From an uncultured Gammaproteobacteria bacterium (GTDB lineage Bacteria; Patescibacteriota; Patescibacteriia; 2-12-FULL-60-25): DNA of 64,000 nt. A model generated the notes under the pieces. The model was given only the letters and a program-made list of their open reading frames with translations, searched no databases and was not told where the DNA came from. The position numbers and the translations under genes are program-made. Below are positions 9,965 to 64,000 of this stretch, one piece after another. Within the stretch, counting starts at the first letter, position 1. Every line of letters begins with the position of its first letter. The stretch is from contig CAZQSK010000005.1 of the NCBI GenBank assembly GCA_964596245.1, positions 42-64,041 of the forward strand, given 5' to 3'.

Positions 9965-10909
9965 TCAGCGGAGACTGCTGATGGCGTAGGCATAGAGAGG
10001 CTGGGCCGTGCATTGCTGCAACGGGACATGCCGAAGAATGTACTGATCGGGCTGCTTCTCCTCGAGGATGAGCAGCCCGATTTGATGCGTGGGCGATTCG
10101 TCTTCGAGCGAGATCCGCTGGCGGTACTTGCGCACCACCTGCAGATGCCCGGTGAACGGATCACTCCACAGCGGCTTCGGGCCGTCGCCGGTCTCCTCAA
10201 GCGTAAGGAGACGGTTGATCGGCTGACCATTCTCGCCGCGCATGCGGACGATCACGTTCAGCAATCCGTTCTTGCGCGCCCCCGAGAAACGCGAGGCGCC
10301 GAGGAAGGTCGCGCGCTCGGGCAGATGCGTGACGTAGTGCCACATCAACGGCCGGTCCGTCGCGAGAAGCGGGGCGTAGTACAGCTGGTCACACACCCCG
10401 TCCGGCGTCCGACGATAGGCGTAGACGCGGCTCCGCTGCGTATCGCATCCGATCACGCAGTACCCATCCTCGCCCTCAGGGGCGAGATCGACCCACCGCC
10501 CGTCGAAACAGGCGATCGTCCACTCGAGCTTGCCGACCAGCCGCTCCTGGTGGGAGCGCTGCTCGGGAACGGCTCTCATGTGCGCCTTGAGATACGTCTT
10601 CAGATCGCTGGGGCGATTCCGAAAGATCGACAGGCGTTCCGATCCAGTGATGAAGGTCGCTCTCCCGCAGGACAGGAACAGGCTGACCGTTGCCTCCTCC
10701 TCCCTTCTGGGGATAAGCAGGTCATTCACCACGGACTCCGAGGACTTCACCATTCGGACCTGTGCGTGGTCGCCCGCCACGCTCAGCCCCACATAGGCCA
10801 GTCGCTCGTTGTCGCGAGCCCGGAATTCGTCCGCCGCTTGCCCAAGCGGAATGACGCCCTCCGTGCCCAGTCGCATGTACGAAGTTCGATTCAACGTCTC
10901 CATCTGCAC
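9965..10909 (-). CDS. hypothetical protein, GC-rich ORFan (314 aa)
   Basis: Long ORF with high GC3. 'GGGAGAGG' lies 7 nt upstream of GTG 10909, and ATG 10903 is an alternative start. I recognised no family motif. It converges on the giant gene. Confidence 0.7.
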   Translation of the reverse strand: MQMETLNRTSYMRLGTEGVIPLGQAADEFRARDNERLAYVGLSVAGDHAQVRMVKSSESVVNDLLIPRREEEATVSLFLSCGRATFITGSERLSIFRNRPSDLKTYLKAHMRAVPEQRSHQERLVGKLEWTIACFDGRWVDLAPEGEDGYCVIGCDTQRSRVYAYRRTPDGVCDQLYYAPLLATDRPLMWHYVTHLPERATFLGASRFSGARKNGLLNVIVRMRGENGQPINRLLTLEETGDGPKPLWSDPFTGHLQVVRKYRQRISLEDESPTHQIGLLILEEKQPDQYILRHVPLQQCTAQPLYAYAISSLR

Positions 10910-10966
10910 AATCGCACCTCTCCCTGTATGAGAACGAAGCCCGATAAAACATCCATCGGGGCTAGC

Positions 10967-10995
10967 ACTCTATTTAAAATTTGCTGAACTGTCAA
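10967..10995 (-). promoter_or_regulatory. sigma70-like promoter TTGACA-17-TAGAGT for the 9965-10909 gene
   Basis: Minus strand reads TTGACA (10995-10990), a 17-nt spacer, then TAGAGT (10972-10967). A ~55-nt leader with a short hairpin follows. Confidence 0.5.
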
Positions 10996-11041
10996 GGGTG
11001 CTTGCCGATGGCTTCGGCTTCCGATACCATCGGCCTGCCTA

Positions 11042-11116
11042 GGCGTGGTAGCCAAGTGGTAAGGCAGGAGTCTGCAAAACTCCTATGCGCGGGTTCAATT
11101 CCCGCCCACGCCTCCA
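11042..11116 (+). tRNA. tRNA-Cys (anticodon GCA), CCA encoded
   Basis: Hand-folded cloverleaf: acceptor GGCGTGG/CCACGCC, anticodon stem GGAGT/ACTCC with loop CTGCAAA, T arm GCGGG-TTCAATT-CCCGC, discriminator T, then CCA. Confidence 0.9.
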
Positions 11117-15432: not shown

Positions 15433-16560
15433 TTACTGACGAATCGGCATCACCACGTAGCGATAGCCCTCGCCTTCTTTTGGCGTAACGACAACCGGAT
15501 TCATGCCATCAATCATGCGCAAAACAATTTTATCGCCGCCCATGGAAGCGAGTCCGTCGGAAATATAGCGGTAGTTGATGGTCACTTTGTTCGCATCGCC
15601 CTCCATGTCGACCTTCAGCGTGGTCGCGTGCGCCCCTGTGCCGCTGTCTGACGAAGAAACCTTCAAGTTACCACCGCCGAACTCCAAATGGACATCAAAC
15701 AGTCCCTGGCGCGAAAACAAGGCTGCAGCGCGGATCGCTTTGGAAAGTTCGGTGCGGGTTAGCGTTCCTGTTGTGCGGAACTGGGTGGGGATGATCTGTC
15801 GATAGTCGGGAAAAGAGGCCTCGATCAAACGTGAAATCAGCTCAACATTGCCGTAGGTTAGCACCATTTGGCTATCGGTCATGCTCCATTCCACGGCCTC
15901 GGGCATCCCCACGTCATCCTTGTAAGCAGCTAAGATGCGGGCGATCTCAAGCATAGCCTTGGCCGGGACAATACACTTAGCCTCCGTACTCGCGCTGCCC
16001 GGCTCAAGCTCAACCACGCGCTCGGCCAAACGATATGAGTCGGTCGCCGCCATGATCACCTTGTTTGAGTGCTCGTGTTGGAAGACGCATGACACGCCAC
16101 CAAGCTCCGGACGTGATTCGGAACCGGAGACGGCAAATGCAACTTGTCCGATCGCGTTGCGAAGCGACTCGGCCTTCAAGCGATAACCCCCTTCTTTTGC
16201 CAAACGCGGAATGAGCGGATACTCAGACGATGGCATTCCTCGAACACTCGTCGACGATCCATCCGCGCGAACCTCCAAACTGTCGCCGTTCAAAACCAGT
16301 TCCACCTTGCCGGACGGAAGGAGTGCGACATAATCCTGAAGAAGCTTGGCAGGAACCGTAAACTCTCCTGGCTGCTCAACGCGACCGCGCACCATGGCAG
16401 ATACCGCCATCTCTAAATTCGTCGTGGAAAGTTTCAAGCCACCGTTCTCGGTCTTGAGCAAGACATTACCCAAGATCGGGAGGTTGGCGTTCTTCCCAGA
16501 GATGTGGCTGACCAGGGACAATCCCTGCAAGAGATTCTCTTGAGTACAGGCGAAGTTCAT
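15433..16560 (-). CDS. dnaN: DNA polymerase III beta sliding clamp
   Basis: 375 aa. Typical DnaN N-terminus 'MNFACTQENLLQGLSLVSHISGKNANLPILGNVLL'. Located immediately downstream of dnaA. Confidence 0.95.
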   Translation of the reverse strand: MNFACTQENLLQGLSLVSHISGKNANLPILGNVLLKTENGGLKLSTTNLEMAVSAMVRGRVEQPGEFTVPAKLLQDYVALLPSGKVELVLNGDSLEVRADGSSTSVRGMPSSEYPLIPRLAKEGGYRLKAESLRNAIGQVAFAVSGSESRPELGGVSCVFQHEHSNKVIMAATDSYRLAERVVELEPGSASTEAKCIVPAKAMLEIARILAAYKDDVGMPEAVEWSMTDSQMVLTYGNVELISRLIEASFPDYRQIIPTQFRTTGTLTRTELSKAIRAAALFSRQGLFDVHLEFGGGNLKVSSSDSGTGAHATTLKVDMEGDANKVTINYRYISDGLASMGGDKIVLRMIDGMNPVVVTPKEGEGYRYVVMPIRQ

Positions 16561-16890
16561 ATACCGAGCCTCATCTTGGATGTTCGTCTTCCTTCCGTCA
16601 AACGGGTTCTCGGGTCGGGTATTTTTTCACTCATTAGTATTAGTTAGGTTATATATAAGTATATGAACGGTGGTGACTATGAGTGCTGTGGATACTGAGG
16701 ATAAATGGCTTTTTGCGCCAAGCCAAAGCCCGCAACGGCCGCTTTCTATCCACTCGTATCAAGGTATAACCTGGGCCGCGCCTATGGATGAAAATAGCGC
16801 CCCCTTTAGAGGCGCTATTTTGTACTCATCTAGTCCCAAGCTTCCCCAAAGGTTTATCCCAGCTCATCCACAGACTTGTCCCCAGCGATC
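16561..16890. other. candidate oriC (dnaA-dnaN spacer): AT-rich unwinding element plus DnaA-box-like 9-mers
   Basis: AT-rich tract 16621-16665 ('attttttcactcattagtattagttaggttatatataagtatat'). Box-like sites: TGTGGATAC 16686-16694, TATCCAC 16747-16753, TTTATCCCA 16853-16861, TCATCCACA 16864-16872. Confidence 0.55.
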
Positions 16891-18309
16891 TTAGACCCGC
16901 ATCTCTCCGTTCGAATAAAGTTTTTCTCGAATGATGGTGAGGTCACGTCGCAGCTGCTCATCTTGTTTGAGAAGATCGCCGATTTTTTCGCAGGCGTGCA
17001 TCGCGGTGGTGTGATCTCGACCCCCGACCTGGTCCCCGATCGAGGGATAGGAGCACTTAGCTTCTTCGCGCAGCAAGAACATCGCGACCTGTCTTGGGAA
17101 TGCGAGACGACGCTCGCGACTCTTGCCCAGAATTTCATCCATGGAGATGTCGTAGTAGAGCGTGACCGTCTCCAAGAGCACGCGCGGAGTAATGTTTCGC
17201 TTGGTGAGCGTCGGCGAGAAGCTTTGCAAAATCGGTTGGATGGTTTGCAAAGACGGCAGCAAGTTTTTGAATTGATGATACGCAACAATTTTGTTGAGCG
17301 CGCCTTCGAGTTCGCGGATGTTGCTTTGGATGGCTCCGGCGATCGCGTGGAGAATTTCGGTCGAGAGAGGATAGTTCTTCTCGCGAGCTTTGGCCTGGAG
17401 GATGGCGACGCGGGTTTCGAAATCCGCCTTGGAGATGTCCGCCATCATGCCCCATTCGAAACGGGACTGAAGGCGGCTTTCCAGGTTCGGAATGTCCTTG
17501 GGCGGACGGTCGGATGTCATCACCAGCTGCTTATTGCCCTGGTGAAGGTGATTAAAGGTATGGAAAAACTCTTCTTGGGTGCCCTCGCGGCCAGCCAAGA
17601 ACTGAATATCGTCGACCAAAAGCAAGTCAACCAAGCGATATTTGTCTTTAAAGTCGTTTCCGTGGCCGCTCCGTACCGCTTGAATGAATTCATTGGTGAA
17701 TTTCTCACAGGTAACGTAACGAACCTTCAAATTTGGGTTGTTTTGCAGCGCATGATGGCCGATCGCCTGTAAGAGATGGGTTTTACCCATACCAGCGCTT
17801 CCATAGAGAAACAGTGGATTGTGGACAACGCCGGGCTTGGTTGCGACCGCGGTGGATGCTGCATGAGCCAACTCGTTATTTTTTCCCACAACAAACGAAA
17901 CAAATTGATAGCGAGGGTTCAGTCCAAGGTCTGCGCTCGCCGGGGTTTGCGTGGGGATAAATGCTGTGGAATTCGGGGGAGCGTAGCTGACATTCTGTGC
18001 CTCCGGTTGCTGGCCTGCCTGCTTTTCTGCGACGTGGTCGAGCGGAAGGACGGTCGTATTCTTCACTTCAACACGGTAAATCACTTCACGAATCGGCAAA
18101 TTAGATGCATTACGCAACGCTTTGACGATTTGGTCGTGATATTTTTTCTCCATCCACGCTTTTGTGAAGGTATTGGGCACTGAAACAACCGCACGACTAC
18201 CTTCCGCTTCACTGAGAAAGGTATTTTTGAACCAGGTCGTGAAGTTTGCCTTGGAGAGCGTGAGCTCCAACTCTCCGAGCGCGGCCTGCCAAAGAGCTTG
18301 AGTGTCCAT
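16891..18309 (-). CDS. dnaA: chromosomal replication initiator DnaA
   Basis: Walker A 'GSAGMGKTHL' and C-terminal DNA-binding region 'RDHTTAMHACEKI'. Start chosen at ATG 18309 ('MDTQALWQAALGEL'); the track ORF extends to 18390. Confidence 0.95.
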   Translation of the reverse strand: MDTQALWQAALGELELTLSKANFTTWFKNTFLSEAEGSRAVVSVPNTFTKAWMEKKYHDQIVKALRNASNLPIREVIYRVEVKNTTVLPLDHVAEKQAGQQPEAQNVSYAPPNSTAFIPTQTPASADLGLNPRYQFVSFVVGKNNELAHAASTAVATKPGVVHNPLFLYGSAGMGKTHLLQAIGHHALQNNPNLKVRYVTCEKFTNEFIQAVRSGHGNDFKDKYRLVDLLLVDDIQFLAGREGTQEEFFHTFNHLHQGNKQLVMTSDRPPKDIPNLESRLQSRFEWGMMADISKADFETRVAILQAKAREKNYPLSTEILHAIAGAIQSNIRELEGALNKIVAYHQFKNLLPSLQTIQPILQSFSPTLTKRNITPRVLLETVTLYYDISMDEILGKSRERRLAFPRQVAMFLLREEAKCSYPSIGDQVGGRDHTTAMHACEKIGDLLKQDEQLRRDLTIIREKLYSNGEMRV

Positions 18310-18438
18310 AATCGAGTCGATCTTTCCAAGCACGCATACGCCTGTCAAACACTGTGGAGAAACAGTGGATAGTATGGGATAAAACCCCACACTCTTGCCA
18401 AACGCTTAGATTTCCTGTAATCTATCTAGCGAAACTAT

Positions 18439-18606
18439 ATGGCTACAAAGCGAACCTATCAACCGAAAAAGCGCCGTCGCGCCAAAGTTCACGGCTTTTT
18501 GAAGCGTCAGAAGTCCAAGAACGGTCGCGAAGTACTCGCCCGTCGCCGTCGCAAAGGCCGCAAGGTCTCCGCGATCAAGACCAAGGTGAAGCGCTCCCGC
18601 CGCTAA
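18439..18606 (+). CDS. rpmH: 50S ribosomal protein L34
   Basis: Not in the ORF track (55 aa). Hand translation gives '[55 protein letters not shown]'. Classic position upstream of rnpA. Confidence 0.93.
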
Positions 18607-18618
18607 ACGCGGTAAGAT

Positions 18619-18646
18619 AAGGCGAGGGAAACCTCGCCTTTCTGTT
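18619..18646 (+). terminator. hairpin + U-tract between rpmH and rnpA (terminator/attenuator)
   Basis: Stem aaggcgagg/cctcgcctt with a GAAA loop (18619-18640), followed by 'tctgtt'. Confidence 0.5.
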
Positions 18647-18652
18647 ATCTCT

Positions 18653-19060
18653 ATGTTGCCCAAAGCCGACCGCCTCCGCCGCGCCAAGGATTTTGCCCTC
18701 CTGTCCCAAAAAGGACGGGTGGTCTATTCGCCGTTCTTCGCCTTACGTCTGCGCCCGGCTTCGGCGACCAAGGTCGGCTTTGTGACCTCGTCCAAGATTT
18801 TCAAAACGGCGGTGAAGCGCAATCGTGGAAAACGTCGCATGCGCGAAGTGTTGCGTTTGATGAAAACCGATTGGCCGAAGGGTTTTGATTTGCTTTTTAT
18901 TTTGAAGATCGAGGTGCTCGACGCGCAATTTGCGGAATTACAATCTGCAGTCGTGCGCGCATTTGAAAAAATTCCGGAAGCCATGAGCAAGCCGGCGCAA
19001 CCACGAAAAAATATCAAAGCGCGTCGCAAGACGTCGGTTGTATTTAAAGAGAAAGGGTAA
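18653..19060 (+). CDS. rnpA: ribonuclease P protein component
   Basis: Contains 'AVKRNRGKRRMRE' (RNR motif). Synteny is rpmH-rnpA-yidD. Confidence 0.9.
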   Translation: MLPKADRLRRAKDFALLSQKGRVVYSPFFALRLRPASATKVGFVTSSKIFKTAVKRNRGKRRMREVLRLMKTDWPKGFDLLFILKIEVLDAQFAELQSAVVRAFEKIPEAMSKPAQPRKNIKARRKTSVVFKEKG

Positions 19061-22156: not shown

Positions 22157-23443
22157 ATGAAGGTTGCAGTCATCGGAACTGGATATGTCGGCCTTGTGTC
22201 GGGCGCTTGCTTGGCCGAGCTTGGCCACAAAGTGTCTTGTGTAGACGTTGATCCGGCCAAAATCGAGAAGCTGCGCCAAGGCGTGATGCCGATTTACGAA
22301 CCGGGCCTCGAAGAGCTGGTGAAGCGCAATGTGGCGAATGGTCGCCTCGCATTTACTACCGATTACACACAGGCCGTACCGGATGCCGAGTTCATTTCCA
22401 TTGCCGTCGGAACTCCATCAGCCGAAGACGGCTCGGCCGACATGCAATATGTGTTTGCCGCCGCAGAAATGATCGGCAAGCATTTGAAGCGCTACACCGT
22501 TGTTGCTGACAAGAGCACGGTGCCTGTCGGAACAGCCGAGCGCGTGACGGAAATCATCAAGAGCGTGTACGCCGGAGAGTTTGATGTGATTTCCAATCCG
22601 GAAATTCTGCGCGAAGGACATGCCGTGTCCGATTTCATGAATCCGACGCGCATTATCATCGGTTCGCCGTCCGAGCGCGCCACTCAAGCCGCACTTAAGC
22701 TCTACACCTATCTTGTTTGTCCCAAGCTTGTGATGTCGCAACGTTCTGCTGAGCTCACGAAGTACGCAGCCAATGCGTTTCTCGCGACCAAGATCAGCTT
22801 TATCAATGAGATCGCGCATCTCGCTGAAGAACTTGGCGCCGATGTTGAAGAAGTCGCCGCCGGAATCGGTTCTGATCCGCGCATTGGAAAAGATTTTTTG
22901 CGTGCAGGCCTCGGATGGGGAGGCTCATGCTTCCCGAAAGACGTTCGCGCCATTCGTCACAAGGCGTCGAGTGTTGGATTGGAGATGCCGATCGTTGCCG
23001 CCGCGCTTGAGATGAACGCCAAGGCAAAATCGCGCGTGGTTTCGCGTATCGAAAAAGCGCTCGGAGGCTTGTCCGGAAAGAAAATCGCTTTGTTGGGTCT
23101 TTCATTCAAGAACAACACCGACGACACGCGCGAATCAGCGGCTATCGAACTGCTCAAGCATTTCTTAAATGCCGGTGCGCAGGTTTCTGCTTATGATCCG
23201 GCCGCAGCTTTGTATGACAAAGAGCTCGAGACGCGCTTTGCACGCGTACCGTCCGCGCTGGATGCTGTGCGCGACGCTGACGCCCTGATTCTTGCCACCG
23301 AATGGGACGAGTTCCGCAGCTTGGATGTGCCGGCTATCAAATCAGCCATGAAGGGGAGCGTGATCATGGATGCCCGTAACCTGCTTGATCCGGATCAGGC
23401 TCGCAAAAATGGCTTTACCTACCTCTCCATCGGCCGCCCCTAG
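22157..23443 (+). CDS. ugd: UDP-glucose 6-dehydrogenase
   Basis: 'MKVAVIGTGYVGLVSGACLAELGH' Rossmann fold and catalytic 'GGSCFPKD'. The track ORF starts earlier (21986), overlapping ychF. Confidence 0.92.
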   Translation: MKVAVIGTGYVGLVSGACLAELGHKVSCVDVDPAKIEKLRQGVMPIYEPGLEELVKRNVANGRLAFTTDYTQAVPDAEFISIAVGTPSAEDGSADMQYVFAAAEMIGKHLKRYTVVADKSTVPVGTAERVTEIIKSVYAGEFDVISNPEILREGHAVSDFMNPTRIIIGSPSERATQAALKLYTYLVCPKLVMSQRSAELTKYAANAFLATKISFINEIAHLAEELGADVEEVAAGIGSDPRIGKDFLRAGLGWGGSCFPKDVRAIRHKASSVGLEMPIVAAALEMNAKAKSRVVSRIEKALGGLSGKKIALLGLSFKNNTDDTRESAAIELLKHFLNAGAQVSAYDPAAALYDKELETRFARVPSALDAVRDADALILATEWDEFRSLDVPAIKSAMKGSVIMDARNLLDPDQARKNGFTYLSIGRP

Positions 23444-23476
23444 GCGGCCTTTGCGTTTTATGGAACGTGGTATGTC

Positions 23477-24709: not shown

Positions 24710-24746
24710 GCTGTTTTGCCCTGTTCGCATCAACAAACAAATATTT

Positions 24747-24774
24747 TTGACGGCGTTTCTGCATGCCGTAGCGT
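24747..24774 (+). promoter_or_regulatory. possible promoter TTGACG-16-TAGCGT at the left edge of the GC-rich block
   Basis: TTGACG 24747-24752 and TAGCGT 24769-24774. It would give a ~430-nt leader before the lipoprotein gene. Confidence 0.35.
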
Positions 24775-25074
24775 GGAAAGCAGGTCGAGAGACCTTGGAC
24801 AGAACGGTTGTACGCACGGATCACAGGTTGGTGGTGGCGCCCGAACAGAAACGATTCGGGAATGGGCCACCGCTTCGCGGAATGTTCTGCGGGGCGCCAT
24901 AAGGCATACGGAAATCCGTCCGACAGCGACGCGTGGAAGCTTGGTTGGCCGGGGAATAATCTGCCTTCGACACGAAATCGAAGCGGACGCCGCCGGAACA
25001 TCGAGCTTGGACTGATCGAGCTTGTCTCGCCGCAGACCTCTCACGTCGTGCCGCTCTGTGATCCACGCAAATCT

Positions 25075-25104
25075 GGACGGGCGCTTCCGACCAAGCGCCC
25101 GTCC
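25075..25104. other. 12-bp perfect GC-rich stem-loop in an unassigned GC-rich spacer
   Basis: ggacgggcgctt-ccgacc-aagcgcccgtcc. There is no flanking U-run on either strand. Confidence 0.6.
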
Positions 25105-25207
25105 ATGATCGGCCTTCGCTCCCGCGTCCAGAACTAGTAGTGGATGCGGTCGGCGGAGGTCAGATCGAATGGTTCGATCGGTTGTCCGCTCCTTGTTGGA
25201 GGTCGTC

Positions 25208-26083: not shown

Positions 26084-26092
26084 CGATTTTCT

Positions 26093-26124
26093 GGGCTCCG
26101 CGTCTCACGGAGCCCTCTTTTATT
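26093..26124 (+). terminator. rho-independent terminator
   Basis: 8-bp stem gggctccg/cggagccc (26093-26115), then 'tcttttatt'. Confidence 0.75.
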
Positions 26125-26200
26125 CAGCCAAGAAAGTTATCCACTTCACATGTGGAAACGTGACCTATAAGGTATCGAACATAAATAGAACACTACCCCT

Positions 26201-51255: not shown

Positions 51256-51972
51256 CTAGTAGGCCGCGGCCATCTCCTCAAGGATGGTCTGTGCGGCGGT
51301 GCGCGGGTCGAGCGCTTCGAGGATCGGGCGTCCGACGACGATGTGCCCGCCGCCGCGCTGCGCCTTGATCGCCATGCTCGGCGTCATCACGCGCTTCTGA
51401 TCGCTGAGGGTACCGTCTGCCGGACGGATGCCAGGGGTGATCGGGATCAGTCCGAACCCCTTGCTCATGATCTCCTCCACTTCGAGCGGGGAGCAGACCA
51501 CGTGCGAGACGCCTGCCTCGACCAGCATCTCGCACATGGCGAGGGTGGTCGCAAGCGGGCTGTTGCCGTAGATGCGGCGACACGCGCTGTTGTCGAGCGA
51601 GGTGAGCACGGTGACGCCGATCACGCGCGTCTTGCCAGCATGGTCGACCGCCGCCTTGAGCGAATCCGGCCCGCAGCCCGCCATGACGGTCACGCCCCAG
51701 ACGTCGAGCGCCTCGACCCCCTTCATGGCGCCCTTGATGGTGTTGGGGATGTCGTTCAGCTTCAGATCGAGCATGATCTGCGCCGAGATGTTGGCCTGCC
51801 GGATCGTGTTCACGGCCCGGGGAGCCCCGATGTGCGTCACGAGCTCGAGGCCGATCTTCAGGTTGTTCGCCAGCCCTTCGAGGGTGCGGGCATGCCGCAC
51901 GGCCCCTTCGATCGTTGGAACATCCAGGGCGACGATCAGGTCGTCCTGCGCTTCTACGAACCTTGTATTCAT
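51256..51972 (-). CDS. pyrF: orotidine 5'-phosphate decarboxylase (GC-rich)
   Basis: AGGAGG lies 4 nt upstream of ATG 51972. Contains 'IVALDV', 'DLKLNDIPNT' (DxKxxDIxxT) and 'VVGRPI'. The track ORF start (52020) is the TTG of the -35 hexamer. Confidence 0.85.
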   Translation of the reverse strand: MNTRFVEAQDDLIVALDVPTIEGAVRHARTLEGLANNLKIGLELVTHIGAPRAVNTIRQANISAQIMLDLKLNDIPNTIKGAMKGVEALDVWGVTVMAGCGPDSLKAAVDHAGKTRVIGVTVLTSLDNSACRRIYGNSPLATTLAMCEMLVEAGVSHVVCSPLEVEEIMSKGFGLIPITPGIRPADGTLSDQKRVMTPSMAIKAQRGGGHIVVGRPILEALDPRTAAQTILEEMAAAY

Positions 51973-54245: not shown

Positions 54246-56390
54246 TTAGTCGGCTCTCTTGAGACTTCGCGAGATTCGGAGGCTGTTGGCCAGTACGCTG
54301 ACGCTTGAGAGTGCCATGGCTCCTCCGGCAAAGATGGGATTGAGCGCGCCGACCATCGCAAGGGGAATGAGAACGATATTGTAGAAGAAGGCCCAGAAAA
54401 GATTTTGTTTGATGGTCGAGAATGTTTTGCTCGCAAGGGTCAGGGCTTCCACAGCTTTGAGCGGAGAGCCGCCCATGAGCACGATTTGTCCGCTCGCGAT
54501 GGCCACGTCGGTGCCCGTGCCAATAGCGATGCCAAGATTTGATTGGGCGAGAGCTGGCGCATCATTCAATCCATCTCCGACAAAAGCCACCTTACTACCT
54601 TCTGCTTGTAGGCGCTTAATCTCGTCCGCTTTTCCGCTTGGCGAAATTTCCGCCAACACATGTTCGATGTTCAGTTCTTTTCCGATCGCTTTTGCCGTCG
54701 CTTCGTGATCACCCGTAATGAGCGCAACCTTGATGCCGCGGCTCCGAAGGAGGGTGACAGCCTCCTTTGCCTCGGGTTTCGCGCGGTCCTTGGTTGCGAT
54801 GGCGCCCAGATATGAACCATCCTTTGCGAGCAGGATGACGGTTTTGGCGGCTTTGCGTAGCGCTTGAATTTTCTTATTATCTTCGGCGGAGATCGCGATG
54901 GATTCCTCGACTAAGAACGCTTCGGTTCCCAAGAGGACGGGCTGGCCATCGAAGCGGCCCTGTATCCCTTTTCCCGGAATCGCCTCAAATCCTTCAATCC
55001 TACCCGTTGGCGCATGGGCTTCGGTTGCAGCCGCGAGCACCGCGCTTGCAAGCGGATGTTCCGACGTTGACTCGAGTCCAGCGGCAATGGTCAGTATCGT
55101 TTGCTCGTCGATTCCCTCTGTGGGGGAGATGTCGGTCACGGTCGGGCGACCTTCCGTAAGCGTTCCTGTCTTATCAAAGACAACCATATCGATGTTTCTC
55201 GCGGCTTCGAGAGCTGAACCGTCTTTTACGAGAATGCCGCGCTTCGCACCTGCACCCGTTCCGACCATGATGGCGGCCGGTGTCGCAAGCCCCATGGCGC
55301 ACGGGCAGGCGACGATAAGCACGGCGACTGCATGCCGAATCGCTTCACCTATGCTTGCTCCGAGGAGAAGCCATACGATAAGCGCAGCAATGGCGAGCAG
55401 GATCACCACGGGGACAAACACCGATGAAATACGGTCCACGAGTTTTTCGACCGGCGATTTGGTCGCGAGCGCATGACTCACGGTCGCAACGATTGCGTCC
55501 AGCGCCGAAGCGCCCGGCTCGACCGTCACTTCCATCGTAAATGTTCCCGTTTTATTGATCGTGGCTCCAAACACATTCGCGCCCGTCTCTTTTTCCACCG
55601 GTACCGGTTCGCCCGTGAGCATCGACTCATCGACGGACGAATGTCCCTCGACCACAGTCCCATCGGTTGGAATCCGCTCGCCGCTTTTCACCAAGCAGCG
55701 ATCTCCCGGTCGCAGGGTTGCCGGGTCCACATCTTCGGTTTCGCCGTTCGCGTTAATGCGATGGGCGAGTTTGGGATGAAGAGTCAGAAGCGCTTCAATA
55801 GCCGCGCCAGCGATGGCGCGTTGTCTCGCTTCAAGCCATTTTCCAAGCAGGAGAAAGAAAATGATAATGCCGGATACTTCGAAATAGACATCGCCGGTGC
55901 CGGTGACAAGGGCGTAGGTGCTCCAGAGTAGGGCCGAGCCCGTACCGACCGTGACCAGCGTATCCATTCCAACGCGGCCATGAGTCAGTTCATTCCATGT
56001 GCCGGCATGGAACTTTCGTCCGAAGTAAGCGACGAGGACCCAGGTAAGGACGGCGATCACGCGAAGATCAAGCTCGATGAACATCGTGATGAGAAGCGGG
56101 AGCACCAGAAGACCCGAAATAATAAGACCTGTGGTCGTCGTATAACCGACGTGTGCGAGATGGCTCTCATGATTTGTCCCATGCTCTCCTGCCACGTGAT
56201 AACCCGTATCTGTTACGGCCTTCACGAGCGGCGCATGTCCCAAATGCTCCTCGTGCGTGATGGTTGCGCGTTCGGTCGCGTAATTTACGTTCGCATCTTT
56301 AACGCCCGACACTTTTTTGAGCGACGTTTCGATCGTATTCGCACACGACGCGCAATGCATCCCGACAATCTTCAGTTGGGTGGTTTTCAT
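54246..56390 (-). CDS. copA: copper-translocating P1B-type ATPase
   Basis: N-terminal HMA domain '[12 protein letters not shown]', TM 'CPC' motif ('[11 protein letters not shown]'), 'DKTGTLT' and '[10 protein letters not shown]'. Confidence 0.96.
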
Positions 56391-56391
56391 A

Positions 56392-57480
56392 TTATTCGAC
56401 GACGGTGAATGAGCCGCGAATCATTCCCATGCCGCAGGAGAACGGGATTTCGCCGGCTGATTTGGGTGTGAAACGGATTACATTTGTTCCAGGGGAGAGT
56501 TGGCGGCTGATCCCAAGTCGCGGGGAGATAAGGGTGGAGGCGCAGCCGGACACGTCTTTTCCTTCTACGGCCCAATAGACGGGGACATTCCGTTTAAGCA
56601 CAAAACGTCTCGGCATAAAGGCACCGTACTCGACCGTCATTTGTATGACTTGCTCTTCTGCTTGAGCGGGTTTGATCATCAGACCTTGTGCAAGTACACG
56701 CTCGATCGATCCGGTGATGGTGATTGGGGAACCGAGAACGGTAAGGCCGCCATCAAGTTGGCCAATCGCGAAGAGGATGAGGGCGGCTCCGGTTCCAAGT
56801 TGGAGAAAGCGTGTTTTTGAAGCGAGGTGAGAGCCGAACAGTGAGAGGCCTAAAAGGGTCGGGAGCGTTCCAAGGGCAAAGATGAGCATAAAGCCAGCTC
56901 CGGTCCATGCCGATCCTGTTGCCAGGGCAAGAGCCTGCGCGGCTTGGGTAAAGCCGCAGGGGAGGATGAACGTTGCAGCTCCAAGGAGCCAAGGCGTGGT
57001 TGGATTCGAGGTCTTAAACGGAAGTCGAAACGTGGATGTGAAGCGCGCGGGAATGAGGTCAAGCAAACTGGCGCCTACGATCAGAAAACCAACACCGAGA
57101 ATAAGGCCAAGCCAGCCATAGACGGAAGAAGACGCAGAGATAATCTGTCCGAAATAACCGAGCAAGGCTCCGCCAAGAGCGAAGGCGAGGAGGCGACTGA
57201 CGTGAATCGAGATCAGCGAGGCGTATGAGGTGTTTTTTGCCCCATGCGCGAGAAGAAAAGCACCCGTTGAACCGAGGCAGGTGGAAAAAGAAGCGACGAT
57301 GCCAAGAACGAACAAGGCCGCATATGACGGGGCAATGGTTGCCCCAGGGACAATGGCTGAAAACTTCGGCCAAACAAACGCACCGAGTATGGCGACGGCG
57401 ACGAATGCGAGAACGGCATTGAGCAGTCTCGTTTTGAGTGGGCGTCGCGTTTCGGGAACGCAGCAAGCAGGAGTATCCAT
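56392..57480 (-). CDS. TauE/SafE (DsbD_2)-like membrane protein fused to a C-terminal cupredoxin-like domain
   Basis: Multi-TM N-terminal part. C-terminal '[30 protein letters not shown]...[14 protein letters not shown]' resembles the cupredoxin_1 domain often found next to copA. Confidence 0.65.
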
Positions 57481-57481
57481 A

Positions 57482-57751
57482 TTATGATCGTTGGGAGAGT
57501 TGCATGACCTTTTCCACTTCGGCTAAGACGCGTTCACGCTCCTGCGCCGAACCTTTACGCATCCCTTCCGCAAAACAGGAGCGCAGATGGTTTGAGAAGA
57601 TGTCCAGGATGAGGCGTTTTACAAGCCCTTGAACCGCGAGGACTTGCTGAAGGATTGAAATACAATATTCTCCGCGCTCAAGCATTTCAATGACCTTGTC
57701 GAGATGTGAGCGTGCCTTGCGGGCAAGCGAAAGGGGAGTCGAGGCCGGCAT
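57482..57751 (-). CDS. csoR: CsoR/RcnR-family metal-sensing transcriptional repressor
   Basis: 89 aa. Contains 'HLDKVIEMLERGEYCISILQQVLAVQGLVKRL....H..C' (Cys-His-Cys ligand pattern). Confidence 0.85.
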   Translation of the reverse strand: MPASTPLSLARKARSHLDKVIEMLERGEYCISILQQVLAVQGLVKRLILDIFSNHLRSCFAEGMRKGSAQERERVLAEVEKVMQLSQRS

Positions 57752-57752
57752 A

Positions 57753-58367
57753 TTAGTGCATCATCATGCCCGAGCCGCCGCCGTATCCGTCGCGCAACCA
57801 GCTCAGCATGATGCTGATCTCTTCGGTTTGCACGCGGATCACGTCTTGGGCGAAGTTCGTGAGTTCGGCGCGCTTCGTAAAGCCAAGAGCCTGGCGTGCC
57901 ATTTCGACCGCACCCATGTGATGCATGACCATGCCGTGTAGGTAGGTTGCGACCGCGCGCTCTTCGCTCAAGCCTTGGAGATTCGGCATCATGGGCTGGT
58001 AGCGGCCATCATCACGGTATTCGGTTCCAAACCAATCACGATGCCAGCTTTTCATTTGTTCGATTTCCTTGGTCTGTGCATTGATGATGCCCTGCAAAAA
58101 TCCCTGAATATCCGGATCACTCGTGCGCGAGAGAACGTAGCGCGACGTATCTACCGCTTCCTGATGATGCGGAATCATGGCCATGATGAACTCGGCATCC
58201 GTTTTGACGACCGGGTGGGCCATCATCATGCTTCCTCCTCCCGCGTGCATCATGCCGACCGTTCCTGGGCTCATGGTAAAAGGCCGAATCGGCAAGACAT
58301 AGGTTCCAAGAATCCAACCCAAGAAAAAAGTGGCAACGGCGATCAACGCGATATAGGGAGGTTTCAT
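57753..58367 (-). CDS. DUF305 family protein (signal-anchored)
   Basis: Two 'HH..A(V)' repeats ('MIPHHQEAVDTS' and 'MVMHHMGAVEMA') and an N-terminal TM helix. Confidence 0.8.
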   Translation of the reverse strand: MKPPYIALIAVATFFLGWILGTYVLPIRPFTMSPGTVGMMHAGGGSMMMAHPVVKTDAEFIMAMIPHHQEAVDTSRYVLSRTSDPDIQGFLQGIINAQTKEIEQMKSWHRDWFGTEYRDDGRYQPMMPNLQGLSEERAVATYLHGMVMHHMGAVEMARQALGFTKRAELTNFAQDVIRVQTEEISIMLSWLRDGYGGGSGMMMH

Positions 58368-58454: not shown

Positions 58455-58531
58455 ATGGTGGACCGTGTCGGATTTGAACCGACGACCCCTGCCTTGCAAA
58501 GGCAGTGCTCTAGCCAGCTGAGCTAACGGCC
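58455..58531 (-). tRNA. tRNA-Ala (anticodon UGC), CCA encoded
   Basis: Reverse complement is GGGCCGT..GCTC-AGCTGGCTA-GAGC..CTGCC-TTTGCAA-GGCAG..GTCGG-TTCAAAT-CCGAC-ACGGTCC-A-CCA. The G3:U70 identity pair is present. Confidence 0.92.
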
Positions 58532-58547
58532 CTTATTTCCGTGCGCG

Positions 58548-58640: not shown

Positions 58641-59096
58641 ATGGGTTTCGCCGGTTCTTTTGGTCGCAGGCTCAGTGACCTCGGAGCGCCAGAGGAGGAT
58701 CGACGCATCCTCGCGGTCCCGACCGAGCCCAACCCCGTGCGGTTGTGGCGCGTGCTCGCGGGCACGGTGATGCTGCTCTGGTCGACGCGCATGAATCCGC
58801 GCGCCACCTTCTACTTCGATCTCGAGGAGTCGTTCGGGAACGAGTACCGTCCCAAGGACGGGTTCCGCCTCGCCATCAAGCGGGGCGAGCGCACGCTTCA
58901 GCTCAAGATCGACTGGAGCATGGTCTGGGTGTCGAAGAACATCCTCTACGTCCGCACCGAGCTCCACCCGGACCTCATCGCCCTGTGCGAGAGCGGATCG
59001 ATCGAGGAGCTCATCGTCGAGATGCGCACCACGACCAAGGCCAGCCGGCCCAAGACCTTCCGCGTCACCGCGGCCAAGCACGAGAGCTCGTTCTGA
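58641..59096 (+). CDS. hypothetical protein (151 aa), GC-rich ORFan
   Basis: 'GGAGAAAGGGAGAAAG' lies 4 nt upstream of ATG 58641. GC3 is very high by hand codon reading. 'MGFAGSFGRRLSDLGAPEEDRRILAV...'. The track ORF starts at 58578. Confidence 0.7.
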   Translation: MGFAGSFGRRLSDLGAPEEDRRILAVPTEPNPVRLWRVLAGTVMLLWSTRMNPRATFYFDLEESFGNEYRPKDGFRLAIKRGERTLQLKIDWSMVWVSKNILYVRTELHPDLIALCESGSIEELIVEMRTTTKASRPKTFRVTAAKHESSF

Positions 59097-59602
59097 TGCG
59101 TCGCGGAAGACCGATGAGTCTCAGGCCGCGTCAGCGATCGGTGCTCGCGCGCACGCGTTGGGAGTTCCCGATCCTCGAAGCGAAGAAGATCGCCGAAGAG
59201 GTGAAGGGGACATGTCGCGTGATCGTCATCAAGCAGCGCTGGGAAGTCTGGGTCTCGATCCAGCTCAAGCGCTCGATGAAGGATCGCGACATCGAGCTGG
59301 AGCTCGAGCAGCTCCGCGCCGCACTGTGGTTCGGCTACGAGGATGAGTCGGCGGACAAGGGGTGGACGATGAATCGTCTCAACATCACCGAGTCCACGCT
59401 GACCATCCAGGCCGACTACCGCGACGGCGATCTCAAGCGCCTGCGCGAACCGCGCACCAAGCTGCGCATCGCCCCGCGTCCCGGAAAGGGAGAGCCGCTC
59501 GCAGGAGCGCTCCTCATGCTCGAGGATGCCGCCGACGTCTACGATCCGTCCCATCCGCGCGTGCGGCGCGACAAGGGTCACGAAGACGACATCCCGTTCT
59601 GA
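59096..59602 (+). CDS. hypothetical protein (168 aa), GC-rich ORFan, start overlaps upstream stop
   Basis: The TGATG junction means stop 59094-59096 and ATG 59096-59098 share one nt. 'MRRGRPMSLRPRQRSVLARTRWEFPILEAKK...'. The track lists the same frame from 58745. Confidence 0.65.
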   Translation: MRRGRPMSLRPRQRSVLARTRWEFPILEAKKIAEEVKGTCRVIVIKQRWEVWVSIQLKRSMKDRDIELELEQLRAALWFGYEDESADKGWTMNRLNITESTLTIQADYRDGDLKRLREPRTKLRIAPRPGKGEPLAGALLMLEDAADVYDPSHPRVRRDKGHEDDIPF

Positions 59603-60642: not shown

Positions 60643-61575
60643 TCACTTCTTCAAGATGCGCGCCGCTGCGAACTTTACGCCCGGTAAAATCGCATTCACG
60701 AGCATGAGTAGCATGATTTGTTTTGGAACGGCATTTGAGTCGCGGAAAAACTTATCCGCGACATATAAGGCGAGCGTGTTGTTCATGTACAGCATGCACA
60801 AAGCAACGGTGACGCGTTCGGGCGGCGTACGCCAAGGCGTGATGCGATAGGCGGCCCAGGTTAAGATGGCGAGCCAGGGGAGGGTAAAGGCCAGCACCGC
60901 CAGATCACGCCATGCAAGCGTGACGGGATTGCCGATCGAGGTCGAGGCGGTAATGCCGGTGATCAAGAAACCGAATGCAATAACGGATGCATTTCTCCAG
61001 AGCGCGTCATGTGCCGCGATGCGTTTGGGGATGCGAGCCTTGAGCACCATCGCCAACACAAACGGGATGACGATCGTAAGGAATAAAGACCAGAACATCT
61101 GCACCACCGGAATGGGGACGGCTTCTCCGAGCGCGATTTTGGTGACGAGCGGGATGGTGATCGGCGCGAGCAGGGACGTGATGCCGGTGATCACGAGTGC
61201 GAGCGACGTTTTTCCGCCAAAGAACTCCGCGACCAACGCAATGGTCATACCGGTCGGCATGGCGCCCATGATGAGCAGGGCCACGGCCCAGTCCGGCGCA
61301 AACGGTGCGATCGGGAGATAGAGCGCAAACGGCATCAAGATCAGCATGTACAATGCCGCGTTGCTCAGTAGGCGCCAATCACGGCTGTAATTCAGGATTT
61401 CATCCAATGAGAGACGTAGGCTTGAAAAGAAAAACACCAAGATCAGGAGCTGGGTTGTGTATTCGTTGATGGGAGCAAAGAAACGCGGAAACAAAAGTCC
61501 CAAAATGATACCGAGCAACACCGCCATGATTTGGTTGTCATGCAAAAAAGATTTCAAGCGAGCAACCAAAACCAT
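60643..61575 (-). CDS. bile acid:sodium symporter (BASS/SBF-like) family transporter
   Basis: 310 aa and ~9-10 TM helices. The overall pattern ('LLIMGAMPTGMTIALVAEFFGG') resembles SBF-like transporters, as I remember the family. Confidence 0.6.
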   Translation of the reverse strand: MVLVARLKSFLHDNQIMAVLLGIILGLLFPRFFAPINEYTTQLLILVFFFSSLRLSLDEILNYSRDWRLLSNAALYMLILMPFALYLPIAPFAPDWAVALLIMGAMPTGMTIALVAEFFGGKTSLALVITGITSLLAPITIPLVTKIALGEAVPIPVVQMFWSLFLTIVIPFVLAMVLKARIPKRIAAHDALWRNASVIAFGFLITGITASTSIGNPVTLAWRDLAVLAFTLPWLAILTWAAYRITPWRTPPERVTVALCMLYMNNTLALYVADKFFRDSNAVPKQIMLLMLVNAILPGVKFAAARILKK

Positions 61576-61576
61576 A

Positions 61577-62563
61577 TCAACGAATACTCACGCGCTTGAA
61601 ATCGTTTTTTTTCGGGAAGCGGGGGAGAATGCCTGCTTTGGCGCCCATATGCGTGATGACGCCGGTCGCATTGAGCATGGCGACCGCTAATGAGGCGTGT
61701 ACATCCTGTTTTGTCTTGATCCAAGCCGCGACAAAAGCGCTCCCGAATGCATCACCAGCGCCCGTCGTATTCACGAGTTTCTTTTTAAGCGAGTTTGCGC
61801 GGAGATTTTTACCAGCCACGCGCACGAGCGCGCCTTTGCTTCCCTCGGTGAGGAGAAAAGCGCCACGCGGTAAGTCGCCGATGGCCACCAATCCGCCCAA
61901 CAGATTCGCCTCTTCGGCATTCAAGCTGAGAATGTCCGTTTGCTCGATAAATGGTTTTAGTTTTTTCAACCCAAGCTCCAATTCGCGATTACCGGGATTC
62001 CACGCGATCTTGGTTTTGTTGCGAGCCGCATGAGAGAAGATATCTTTCAGCGCTTGGATATCTCCGCCAAGAGACGTGAGATAAATCCAATTGGCGACTT
62101 TCCCTCCGCTCAATTTCTTGGTCCAGTGATGCCAAGGGAAGGACGCGCTGTCTAACTTCGCTGATGCGCCTCGATGAGTGAAGATGGCGCGATGACCTGT
62201 GCCTGAAAGCAATATCACCGAGTACGCGGTTTTTTCTTTCTTATCGATTTGCATGAAGCGCGTATCGATTTTTTCTTTCTTCAAATCTGCTATGACTTGG
62301 CTCGCGGTTAAATCCTTGCCGATGCGGGAGAGACAGGCGGTTTTTAATCCAAATCGGGCAAAGGTTACGGCTGCATTCGTGGCGCCACCGCCCGAGGCAA
62401 AGGTCAGCTCATCAATGCCCATCTTGGCACCCATGGCGAAGCAGGCCGAAATGCCGTCGGGGGAGTTACTATCGTGATGCATTTCGAGCGCGGCTGAGCG
62501 CACAAAGACGTCCTGCGTAGCCGAACCAATGGTAAGAACGTCAAAACGTGGCATATTCGCCAA
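61577..62563 (-). CDS. PfkB-family carbohydrate kinase
   Basis: Contains 'GGGATNAAVTFARFG' and C-terminal 'NTTGAGDAFGSAFVA'. Confidence 0.88.
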   Translation of the reverse strand: MANMPRFDVLTIGSATQDVFVRSAALEMHHDSNSPDGISACFAMGAKMGIDELTFASGGGATNAAVTFARFGLKTACLSRIGKDLTASQVIADLKKEKIDTRFMQIDKKEKTAYSVILLSGTGHRAIFTHRGASAKLDSASFPWHHWTKKLSGGKVANWIYLTSLGGDIQALKDIFSHAARNKTKIAWNPGNRELELGLKKLKPFIEQTDILSLNAEEANLLGGLVAIGDLPRGAFLLTEGSKGALVRVAGKNLRANSLKKKLVNTTGAGDAFGSAFVAAWIKTKQDVHASLAVAMLNATGVITHMGAKAGILPRFPKKNDFKRVSIR

Positions 62564-62668
62564 ATATCATACCACGCGGGTACACCCGGAGCTTGTCGAA
62601 GGGTTGACTTTTTCGCTGAAATGTGGTTGATTTCGACCAGGTCGGAAGGTCCGACCGAGGAGGACACC

Positions 62669-64000
62669 ATGGGTACCAACACCGTTCGTTCCATCTTCAC
62701 GTTCGTCACGCTGTTCGTCCTCGCGCTCATCCCGACCGTCGGGCGCGCGCAGGACACGGTCATCTCGATGCCGTCGGTTCTACCGATCGCCGGGGCCGCA
62801 GACGAGGTCCTGGCTCAGGAGCTCGATACCGCGCTCCGTCAGGCGATCCGTGCCCGGCCCGGGTGGGTGATGTCGAGCCTCGACATTCGCTTCACCGAGC
62901 TCATCCGCGCCTGCAACGGCGAGGTCGAGACTCCGTCGGACACGTGCCTCATCGGGATGATGGCGGCACGAGATCCCGTGGCCCTCAGTGGCTACGTGAT
63001 CTTCGCCGGACTTGGTCGTCGCGGTGAGGCTGACGCAGCTCAAATGTATCTCACGATGACTTTGATCAATGTCGAAACGCGCCTGCGTGAAGGATTGATC
63101 GAGGTCGAGGTGGAGCGCATCATTTCGCTCGAAGAGCGGAATCGTCTGGCCACCGATTGGGTGAGGCGGCTGGCTCGTCTGGTCGAGCCGGAGCCGGTTC
63201 CACCGGTCATCCCGCTCGCCGCCTCCGGCGTCGGACGTGTCGTCACGATACTCGGCATCGATTCCGTCGAGGGCGACGACTCGTTCGCCTATGCTCTGAC
63301 CGGGGCGCTGCGCACGCAAGCGCGCACCGTTCCGGACTGGGCCGTTTCGGATCGGGAGATCGTGCTCACCCAGCTCGCGTTGGCGCACGACTGCGAGCCG
63401 GTCACCCTCGATTGCCTCCGGGCATGGTCGGTGGATCCCGACTCGGGTGCGAATGGCGACATCATCATCTACGGACGACTGCGTCGTGCCGGAGAAGGTA
63501 CATCGCTGCACCTGCATCTTGAGCTCGCGCTCTTCGATGCAACAGCTGGTCGCATCACACATCGCGTGAGTCGCGACATGACGGTCGAAGAAGTGATGGC
63601 GCCTACACTGCGTACCGCCATCGCGACGGAGATCGTTACGGTGCTGACCGGTGCAGAGAATGCGATGGACGAGAGTCCGATCGAAGAGACCGAAGTCGAG
63701 GAGATCCCCGTTGCGACGGGTAACCCTCACGAGGGCCTCGAGATCGGTGGCATCGCCATGATGGGTCTGGGTGCGGCTTCGGTCGTGCTCGCCTCCGTGT
63801 TCGGAGGTCTCATCATGAGCGCCAACGACGATGCGCGCTTCAACGCCTACCGTTCCACCTGGGACGGCACGCGAGTGAGCGACATCTGTACTGTCGCCGC
63901 GAGCGACATGAGCGCCGACGGTCAGTACGTCGCCGGCCGCTGCAACGAGGCGGCCACCTACGAGATCCTGACCCCGCTTCTGTGGATCCTCGCGGGTTCG
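62669..64000 (+). CDS. GC-rich secreted/membrane-anchored hypothetical protein, 3' end beyond window (not in supplied ORF track)
   Basis: AGGAGG lies 5 nt upstream of ATG 62669. I read 444 codons by hand to the window end with no stop and very high GC3. Signal peptide 'MGTNTVRSIFTFVTLFVLALIPTVGRAQD'. TM helix 'GIAMMGLGAASVVLASVFGGLIM' near nt 63750. Confidence 0.75.
   Translation, partial: MGTNTVRSIFTFVTLFVLALIPTVGRAQDTVISMPSVLPIAGAADEVLAQELDTALRQAIRARPGWVMSSLDIRFTELIRACNGEVETPSDTCLIGMMAARDPVALSGYVIFAGLGRRGEADAAQMYLTMTLINVETRLREGLIEVEVERIISLEERNRLATDWVRRLARLVEPEPVPPVIPLAASGVGRVVTILGIDSVEGDDSFAYALTGALRTQARTVPDWAVSDREIVLTQLALAHDCEPVTLDCLRAWSVDPDSGANGDIIIYGRLRRAGEGTSLHLHLELALFDATAGRITHRVSRDMTVEEVMAPTLRTAIATEIVTVLTGAENAMDESPIEETEVEEIPVATGNPHEGLEIGGIAMMGLGAASVVLASVFGGLIMSANDDARFNAYRSTWDGTRVSDICTVAASDMSADGQYVAGRCNEAATYEILTPLLWILAGS

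Follow-up and report, generated by a model that had tools for sequence, protein, structure and literature searches.

How can one small bacterial chromosome hold two kinds of genes, which differ both in their composition and in the signals that precede their start codons? This question is raised by a stretch of 64,000 nt of contig CAZQSK010000005.1 (assembly GCA_964596245.1, positions 42-64,041 of the forward strand; hereafter the window), in which an earlier note, made from the sequence alone, had described eight GC-rich gene blocks with Shine-Dalgarno (SD) sites wedged between housekeeping genes without them, and had suggested repeated acquisition of the blocks from an SD-using, high-GC donor. 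Our analysis confirmed the existence of the two gene classes, and comparison with the sequences of relatives indicated that the blocks, here called islands, did not arrive as eight recent insertions: they form an old accessory compartment whose sites are fixed and shared and whose content still changes. The explanation that we favour, with some confidence, is that the eight islands are horizontally acquired accessory genes lodged in a small number of intergenic positions that tolerate them, on an Uhrbacteria chromosome of high synteny.

All eight blocks were found where they had been placed, with amended bounds for two of them: island 1 (9965-10909, minus strand), island 2 (from 25169, the start in the database call, to 26083, plus strand), island 3 (30340 to about 35175, not 35070, minus strand), island 4 (43173-44235, minus strand), island 5 (48274-48867 and 48889-49605, minus strand), island 6 (51256-51972, minus strand), island 7 (58641-59602, plus strand) and island 8 (62669-64000, plus strand, cut by the end of the window). 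The backbone between the islands (11156-62563) includes pbp1A, dnaN, dnaA, rnpA, tig, ychF, ugd, comEC, recA, ftsK, rpoB, rpoC, ruvC, gyrA, ruvA, femAB, doxX, copA, ghrB and pfkB, among others. Its RpoC shared 90% and 89% amino-acid identity with those of two metagenome-assembled genomes (MAGs) of Patescibacteria / Candidatus Uhrbacteria, and the loci returned, 80 in all (loci and contigs bear L numbers here), were nearly all labelled Uhrbacteria or Patescibacteria, or generically. The backbone belongs to Candidatus Uhrbacteria, within the Candidate Phyla Radiation (CPR, or Patescibacteria), in agreement with the CPR-type backbone that had been suspected.

Compositional analysis was carried out on a curated list of 31 backbone and 17 island genes, compiled from open reading frames (ORFs), homology and, where present, database gene calls. 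A 1-kb profile showed a background GC content of 0.50-0.57 and island peaks of 0.60-0.67 at 9.5-11, 25-26, 30-35, 48-49.5, 51-52, 58.5-59.5 and 62.5-64 kb, corresponding to seven of the eight blocks; the remaining one, at 43.2-44.2 kb, was barely raised in total GC (about 0.55-0.56) and was distinguished by its SD sites and by the GC fraction at third codon positions (GC3, 0.70-0.73). The median GC3 was 0.82 for the island genes (0.70-0.98, n=17) and 0.62 for those of the backbone (0.54-0.74, n=31; Mann-Whitney p=8e-8), in line with the proposal of two compositions in one contig. GC1 and GC2 were shifted as well, the island proteins were rich in arginine (R/(R+K) 0.67, versus 0.47 for the backbone, p=3e-5), and the intergenic GC within island 3 was 0.57-0.59. 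The GC-normalised dinucleotide signature of the pooled islands differed from that of the backbone by a delta* of 0.147, whereas equal-sized backbone samples gave 0.029 +/- 0.011 with a maximum of 0.067, and the distance between island 3 and the remaining islands was only 0.061. Deviant composition, by which genomic islands are classically recognised, was thus found in GC content, codon usage and oligonucleotide signature.

The codons themselves indicated what kind of deviation this was. The rpoBC, gyrA, tig and recA genes favour TTG, GGT, CGT/CGC, GAA, CCG and TGT, and neither CGG nor AGG occurs in them, whereas the island genes shun TTG, GGT, GAA and TGT and favour CTC/CTG, GAG, CGG (0.18), GGG (0.18) and CCC (0.30). 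The island pattern is typical of genomes rich in GC, or of a GC pressure that acts uniformly. It is not the native expression bias taken further, because the codons favoured in rpoBC, gyrA, tig and recA are avoided in the islands.

The two classes also differed in front of their start codons. SD energies were calculated for the pairing predicted between the 16S tail GAUCACCUCCUUA and bases -20 to -3, and sites of -9 kcal/mol or below were considered strong; the 16S rRNA gene from which the anti-SD tail could be read was sought in the window and in every fetched locus, and none was present. The median energy was -10.5 kcal/mol for island genes and -3.0 kcal/mol for backbone genes (p=4e-6), and strong sites preceded 10 of the 17 island genes and none of the 31 backbone genes, in line with the two translation-initiation styles proposed; some island starts had been picked with the help of the SD site, a choice with which the database calls agreed for islands 2 and 3 and also in three relatives. 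Of the in-frame internal start codons, used as a control, 4.9% of those within backbone genes and 8.7% of those within island genes reached -9 kcal/mol, which shows that the SD signal is not a by-product of GC content alone and that the backbone starts carry no SD signal above chance. An SD site 4-8 nt before almost every island gene had been described; most of these genes do have one, with the core 4-9 nt from the start codon, but only the 10 mentioned are strong.

The short strings that the earlier note quoted upstream of rpoB, rpoC, recA, gyrA, copA and pfkB were all correct, and its impression that several backbone genes look leaderless was borne out by the position of candidate promoters. 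A TAnnnT box ending 3-12 nt ahead of the ATG was present in 9 of 30 backbone genes, against a chance expectation of 2.9%, and in none of 15 island genes. Where -35/-10 pairs could be recognised in the backbone (the 11156-11785 gene, tig, ychF and ruvA), the -10 ended 7-11 nt before the ATG, whereas in the island genes with a recognisable pair it ended 19-57 nt before it. Many backbone genes thus show in their sequence the features of leaderless-type expression, a -10 box near the start and no SD site. Full -35/-10 promoters were recognised in islands 4 and 6, with candidates for islands 1, 3, 5 and 7, and the corresponding leaders would measure 12-50 nt. Because the -10 boxes adjoin the ATG, the core mRNAs are probably leaderless or nearly so, and those of the islands probably carry leaders holding the SD site.

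Additional evidence on the SD sites came from the relatives. Upstream of the island orthologues the SD site was the conserved element despite near-saturated neutral divergence: AAGGAGG was kept before pyrF in three genomes, GGAGG before a thymidine-kinase-like (Tdk) gene in four and GGAGG before the island 2 gene in two. Such conservation argues that the sites are used, and the island SD sites would accordingly be functional. When only database gene calls were considered, in L088, L084 and L082, SD energies of -9 kcal/mol or below preceded 12 of 21 high-GC3 genes and none of 39 backbone genes. Our own simple gene caller, which fails on atypical genes and loses short island genes, could be applied to 44 of the 80 loci and placed SD sites before 39% of high-GC3 genes and 14% of other genes against a chance level of about 12%, a noisy result that we take as support only.

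An assembly or binning chimera, a possibility that the earlier note had asked to be excluded, was ruled out by independent contigs over several of the junctions and by MAGs from unrelated studies, which had the same architecture. Logan contig L001 (13.1 kb, SRR8893623) matched window 23322-36433 with 3 mismatches and crossed all four junctions of islands 2 and 3, and L090 and L091, one contig each from SRR8893623 and SRR8893624, were 100% identical and crossed the ruvC/island 4 and doxX/pyrF junctions. An exact look-up with gyrA gave no match. The Logan contig at the ruvC junction breaks off inside the repeated terminator of island 4. Another Logan contig, L086, which carries ghrB, an SBF-family transporter gene (60643-61575) and part of pfkB (window 59606 and 62110), would, to judge by its gene coordinates, end at 59606, some 4 bp away from island 7; strain variation or a change of coverage at the junction may account for this.

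Seven of the eight sites could be compared in the relatives, the site of island 1 being outside every fetched locus. Gene order was kept in L002/L088, L003/L092, L004, L005, L007, L011, L082 and L084, and GC-rich, SD-led genes were present in relatives at six of the seven checkable sites, so the synteny comparison, which the earlier note had proposed, showed that the blocks are not insertions peculiar to this genome. Close homologues of every island family searched were found in Uhrbacteria contigs at the same sites; best hits in the lineage of the backbone at similar identity had been named as evidence against acquisition, and the hits did come from the own lineage, but at 25-64% identity, far below the 71-92% of the backbone proteins.

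The site between the HTH_25 gene and rpoB harbours island 3 and was occupied in L002, L003, L004, L005, L007, L011, L088 and L092. Every relative checked had 4-5 kb of genes there, on the strand opposite to rpoB, with GC3 mostly of 0.72-0.97 and AGGAGG-type SD sites, in backbones of 47 to 59% GC. At the comEC-recA site L088 had an orthologue of the island 2 lipoprotein (56% identity), at the ghrB site L084 had a homologue of the second gene of island 7 (38% identity, same position) and only a marginal match to the first (25% over 95 amino acids), and two paralogues of the island 8 gene adjoin pfkB in L084. Other sites were more variable. The rpoC-ruvC site held 0 to 1.3 kb of other genes, and the femAB-doxX site contained pyrF in L082 and L084 (64% identity) and was empty in L002, L003, L004, L005 and L007. 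The gyrA-ruvA site, which in the window carries the methyltransferase and a peptidase-like gene (island 5), was empty in L007 and L084, held a methyltransferase and an unknown gene in L082, and in L002 (18181-20853), L003 (18525-21114), L004 (18218-21236) and L005 (19375-21982) was occupied by genes resembling thymidine kinase, Maf and nucleoside deoxyribosyltransferase, names that rest on N-terminal motifs only, all of them SD-led. Together with pyrF, these genes suggest an accessory compartment enriched in nucleotide metabolism. In summary, pyrF, the rpoC-ruvC site and the gyrA-ruvA cargo vary among relatives, and islands 2, 3, 7 and 8 are matched in the corresponding sites by diverged homologues; shared sites with diverged or different cargo indicate long-lived sites with gene turnover.

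The methyltransferase seems to be a family of which both compositional states can still be seen. Its orthologue in L082 (13071-13682, 58% identity) has a GC3 of 0.57 and no SD site, implying complete drift to the host composition, and the neighbour of that gene is SD-led with a GC3 of 0.87. Between this genome and its closest relatives, the identity at four-fold sites of the backbone was only 0.39-0.59, close to saturation. According to our own rough arithmetic, a gene entering at a GC3 of about 0.95 near that split would now have decayed to about 0.78, which fits the island median, and GC3 values of 0.94-0.98 would imply younger replacements.

Island 4 offered a clue to the way in which cargo may change. 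It consists of two tandem cassettes, each with a promoter (TTGACA, about 18 nt, TAAGTA), an SD site, an ORF (43212-43622 and 43719-44180, unrelated to each other) and the terminator AAGAGCCAACTGGCTCTTTTTT. The terminators are 93% and the promoter regions 76% identical, and the flanks form repeats of 40 nt (43173-43212 and 43681-43720) and 45 nt (43631-43675 and 44191-44235); the promoter and terminator modules were sought in the relatives and were absent. Such tandem units would be expected if an allele of this site had been circularised and had then integrated there by a single crossover. From this structure and the differing cargo between conserved flanks, we infer that cargo may be exchanged by homologous recombination.

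These observations could be brought together in the following history. Most sites would have been filled before the split from the sequenced relatives, and since then the cargo would have been inherited with very fast divergence, would have drifted partially to the host composition, or would have been swapped for other SD-led cargo, probably by homologous recombination between the conserved housekeeping flanks. The island genes would retain the expression style of an SD-using, high-GC source, that is, a promoter, a leader, an SD site, G/C-ending codons and arginine-rich proteins, in a chromosome whose core genes would be transcribed from -10 boxes adjoining the ATG and translated without SD sites, in a leaderless or near-leaderless manner. 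Of the proposal of repeated acquisition from such a donor, the foreign codon usage, amino-acid bias and signature were thus retained, and the idea of insertions private to this genome was given up in favour of shared sites.

Several results weigh against acquisition. A close donor homologue of any island gene was sought among 5.8 billion proteins and none was found, the methyltransferase of island 5 had no relative outside the clade, and in a neighbour-joining tree of PyrF the Uhrbacteria formed a long branch whose sister group was not resolved and which pointed to no donor. The islands keep the backbone preference for CTC over CTG, and their codon and dinucleotide patterns are near those of high-GC Uhrbacteria (delta* 0.062 to L019), so that composition cannot name an outside donor; signature distance, moreover, tracks GC (rho -0.79). 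With synonymous sites near saturation, holding GC3 at a value of at least 0.9 needs recent replacement or a persistent force. No integrase or transposase was recognised among the island products in Pfam or NCBIfam, and no att-like direct repeats were found around any island, save the internal cassette repeats of island 4. Both neighbouring tRNA genes, tRNA-Cys (11042-11116, plus strand, 133 bp from island 1) and tRNA-Ala (58456-58532, minus strand, 109 bp from island 7), point toward the island with their 5' side and not with their 3' end. Finally, the anti-SD of this lineage is only inferred, and the motif is reported to have been lost in part of Parcubacteria (PMC9297842).

Some of these points would also be expected if the islands were native, fast-evolving accessory genes whose GC3 had been raised, with no outside donor, by GC-biased gene conversion at often-recombining sites. 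Conserved sites with variable and very fast diverging cargo, the GC-richer intergenic DNA of island 3, codons that keep the backbone preferences and are merely moved toward G/C, homologues almost only in Uhrbacteria, and a GC3 that stays high in spite of saturation all agree with such a process, which nevertheless does not explain why island genes alone have SD sites, full promoters and leaders. Moreover, neighbours in one site differ in GC3 (0.57 and 0.87 in L082, 0.83 and 0.70 here), and in the high-GC relative L019 the site genes fall below the core (0.72-0.79 versus 0.91-0.95), so gene-by-gene histories fit better than a regional force. Relatives outside CPR exist for the PyrF, TolB-N-like and MopE-motif families, and a shift from 0.62 to 0.98 far exceeds, to our knowledge, the effects reported in bacteria. 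We hold gene conversion to be a very doubtful explanation. Selection for efficient translation of native, highly expressed genes seemed to us improbable in the extreme: rpoB, rpoC and gyrA do have the top backbone GC3 (0.70-0.74), but CGT, like the other codons favoured in such genes (TTG, GGT, GAA and TGT), is avoided in the islands, the island codons CGG, GGG, CCC and AGG are rare or absent in rpoBC, gyrA, tig and recA, the changes in GC1, GC2, R/K ratio and intergenic GC go beyond synonymous choice, and the products (unknowns, a methyltransferase, pyrF) are none of them typical of high expression. Even less credible, and largely refuted, is the view of the islands as remnants of prophages or integrative elements, or as chimeras. 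Two islands adjoin tRNA genes and two Logan contigs end at or near island edges; however, PHROGs and two viral-contig scans returned nothing, no relatives were found among viral contigs, PADLOC gave no sign of a defence island, neither integrase nor att repeats were seen, and the junctions are crossed by independent contigs with the same architecture in the MAGs of other studies.

The identity of the donor is a separate matter. Donors could have been other high-GC Uhrbacteria or Patescibacteria, with the Myxococcota affinities described below ancient or coincidental and no host signal at all, an alternative that we consider unlikely. In signature and codon usage the islands come nearest to L019, L014 and L027 (61-66% GC), all close homologues lie in Uhrbacteria contigs, and in a published survey 83% of the transfers detected into Patescibacteria came from other Patescibacteria (PMC12455944). 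On the other hand, the core genes of high-GC Uhrbacteria also lack SD sites, so such genomes would not supply SD-led genes with leaders; signature distance correlates with GC; and the families still had to enter Patescibacteria from somewhere. Under the acquisition history that we favour, the immediate source was probably other Uhrbacteria, and the ultimate source of three families looks Myxococcota-like from their matches.

These three families are PyrF, the MopE-motif lipoprotein of island 2 and the TolB-N-like envelope protein of island 8, with identities to Myxococcota of 31-47%. The best named matches of PyrF outside CPR were from Enhygromyxa salina and Nannocystaceae (45-46%), with Verrucomicrobia only slightly behind. 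The Cys/Asp repeat of island 2, which had been associated with Myxococcota in the earlier note, corresponded to Pfam PF11617 (MopE motif) and matched a MYXO-CTERM protein and proteins of Sandaracinaceae and Myxococcales, named matches outside CPR being mostly from Myxococcota. For the island 8 domain all organism-named matches were Myxococcota PEGA-domain proteins (5 proteins in 4 clusters, among 20 looked up). As far as these comparisons go, the link is a distant affinity in three families and not evidence of recent transfer. Host-derived genes, another suggestion of the earlier note, are therefore only hinted at by these affinities, and high-GC Uhrbacteria match the composition equally well. 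It is conceivable, though in our opinion distinctly unlikely, that the islands are a host-interface gene set from Myxococcota (relatives of Nannocystaceae/Sandaracinaceae) on which this Uhrbacteria clade would live, kept in donor-style SD-led units and renewed by an arms race. The cargo would then comprise lysine-free exported envelope proteins of diderm-type domains (TolB-N/PelC-like proteins and MopE-motif lipoproteins with DAG-repeat linkers) together with nucleotide-salvage enzymes (PyrF, Tdk, Maf), and the host of this CPR class could be read from its islands. We know of no host for Uhrbacteria.

Most island products had no family in Pfam, NCBIfam, PHROGs or PADLOC. Island 1 encodes a single protein of 314 amino acids (GC3 0.81) that begins with GTG, 7 nt after the SD site GGGAGAGG, and had no match in these four databases or in PDB, where a sequence search with the products of island 1, of the island 3 gene 30821-31555 and of island 8 found nothing. 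Island 2 (GC3 0.70, SD GGAGG) encodes a lysine-free lipoprotein in which a disordered DAG-repeat linker is combined with two MopE-type Cys-rich motifs and, at the C-terminus, with a beta-sandwich, for which a fold search gave no significant match and weak C2-like ones only. The eight genes of island 3 (30340-30495, 30492-30674, 30821-31555, 31817-32395, 32568-33002, 33291-33899, 34490-34837 and 34885-35175, all on the minus strand) belong to no known family, have GC3 values of 0.74-0.98 and mostly carry SD sites. In island 5, the gene at 48274-48867 encodes an S-adenosylmethionine-dependent methyltransferase (GC3 0.83, weak SD GGGAG) and that at 48889-49605 (SD GGGAGG) a probable exported protein, possibly a lipoprotein, with a HEYIH (HExxH) motif and a weak DUF6782 match. 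Island 6 is pyrF, encoding orotidine-5'-phosphate decarboxylase (GC3 0.88, SD AAGGAGG). The gene has a promoter to itself (TTGACA, 17 nt, TCCAAT) and is flanked on either side by a terminator hairpin. The two genes of island 7, 58641-59096 (GC3 0.89) and 59096-59602 (GC3 0.82), overlap in the stop/start sequence TGATG and belong to no known family. The protein of island 8 (GC3 0.77, SD GAGGAGG) is exported and combines a signal peptide and a transmembrane helix with two TolB-N/PelC/FlgT-like alpha/beta domains, the latter seen in a model with a pLDDT (predicted local distance difference test score) of 86.8.

All four exported island proteins were practically devoid of lysine in their mature form: 0 lysines in 304 amino acids for 25169-26083, 0 in 192 for 31817-32395, 1 in 238 (residue 2) for 48889-49605 and 0 in 443 for 62669-64000. 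In contrast, cytoplasmic island proteins contained 3-9% lysine and the exported proteins of the backbone keep theirs. The island 2 and island 8 families were likewise almost lysine-free in the relatives. Resistance to lysine-specific proteases is a speculative reason for this lack.

Elsewhere in the window, a probable replication origin region containing dnaN, dnaA, rpmH and rnpA was located at 15433-19060, and the cumulative GC skew had its minimum at about 16.5-17 kb, within the dnaN-rnpA region. A giant ORF (3-9950, more than 3315 amino acids, 5' end open) of backbone-type composition abounds in T, S, G, A and N, with lysine at only 1.0%, and terminates in a 38-nt tandem repeat (9846-9922); it probably encodes a giant surface protein typical of CPR. 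A copper-handling cluster, also of backbone composition, was found at 54246-58367 and encodes the P-type ATPase CopA, a DsbD_2 + cupredoxin membrane protein and a DUF305 protein.

If the proposed history is correct, one CPR genome holds two gene-expression styles side by side, and SD sites together with GC3 would provide a simple sequence marker of accessory or acquired genes in Uhrbacteria MAGs. It would also be a warning to gene callers and binning tools that presume a single start model and a single composition for each genome. Candidate host-interaction genes would be those of the salvage enzymes and of the exported proteins without lysine, and the distant Myxococcota affinity would be a testable lead to the partner organism. 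No paper was found in which Uhrbacteria, GC islands and SD or leaderless initiation are linked.

Acquired genes of atypical GC content are a textbook phenomenon, and the value of this case lies in its architecture and in the host lead. Lawrence and Ochman reportedly described acquired 'alien' genes and genomic islands as having an atypical GC content that drifts toward that of the host. The islands resemble them in their atypical GC3, codon usage and dinucleotide signature, in the patchy or variable presence of part of their cargo and in a graded drift (methyltransferase GC3 of 0.83 here and 0.57 in L082), and differ from classical islands in their tiny size (0.7-5 kb), in lacking an integrase and flanking repeats, in sharing sites across species with near-saturated synonymous sites and in a translation start unlike that of the host. 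Groundwater Patescibacteria, also CPR recipients, carry islands and single transferred genes amounting to up to 13% of the genome, with transfers that are old (mean divergence 24%) and exchange mostly among Patescibacteria; the passages available from that survey make no mention of an SD-versus-leaderless split, conserved sites, Uhrbacteria or Myxococcota (PMC12455944). Island 4 recalls an integron array in its tandem single-gene units with conserved boundaries and unrelated ORFs, but was rejected as one, its units having their own promoter and ordinary intrinsic terminator and neither an integrase nor attC-type sites being recognised.

Host-to-episymbiont gene transfer is known from Saccharibacteria living on Actinobacteria. 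That case and ours share a CPR recipient, envelope or exported proteins and cargo that may reveal the partner organism; here the Uhrbacteria host is not known and the Myxococcota identities are only 31-47%. Leaderless or non-SD initiation is dominant in Deinococcus-Thermus, Actinobacteria and Bacteroidota, where SD-led genes are a minority. The core genes of the window, without SD sites and with -10 boxes adjoining the start codon, are similar, but here the SD-led minority is the compositionally foreign class. What is distinctive of this chromosome is that SD-led genes take the place of probably leaderless ones just where the composition turns foreign, that the sites persist across species and that the exported cargo is free of lysine.

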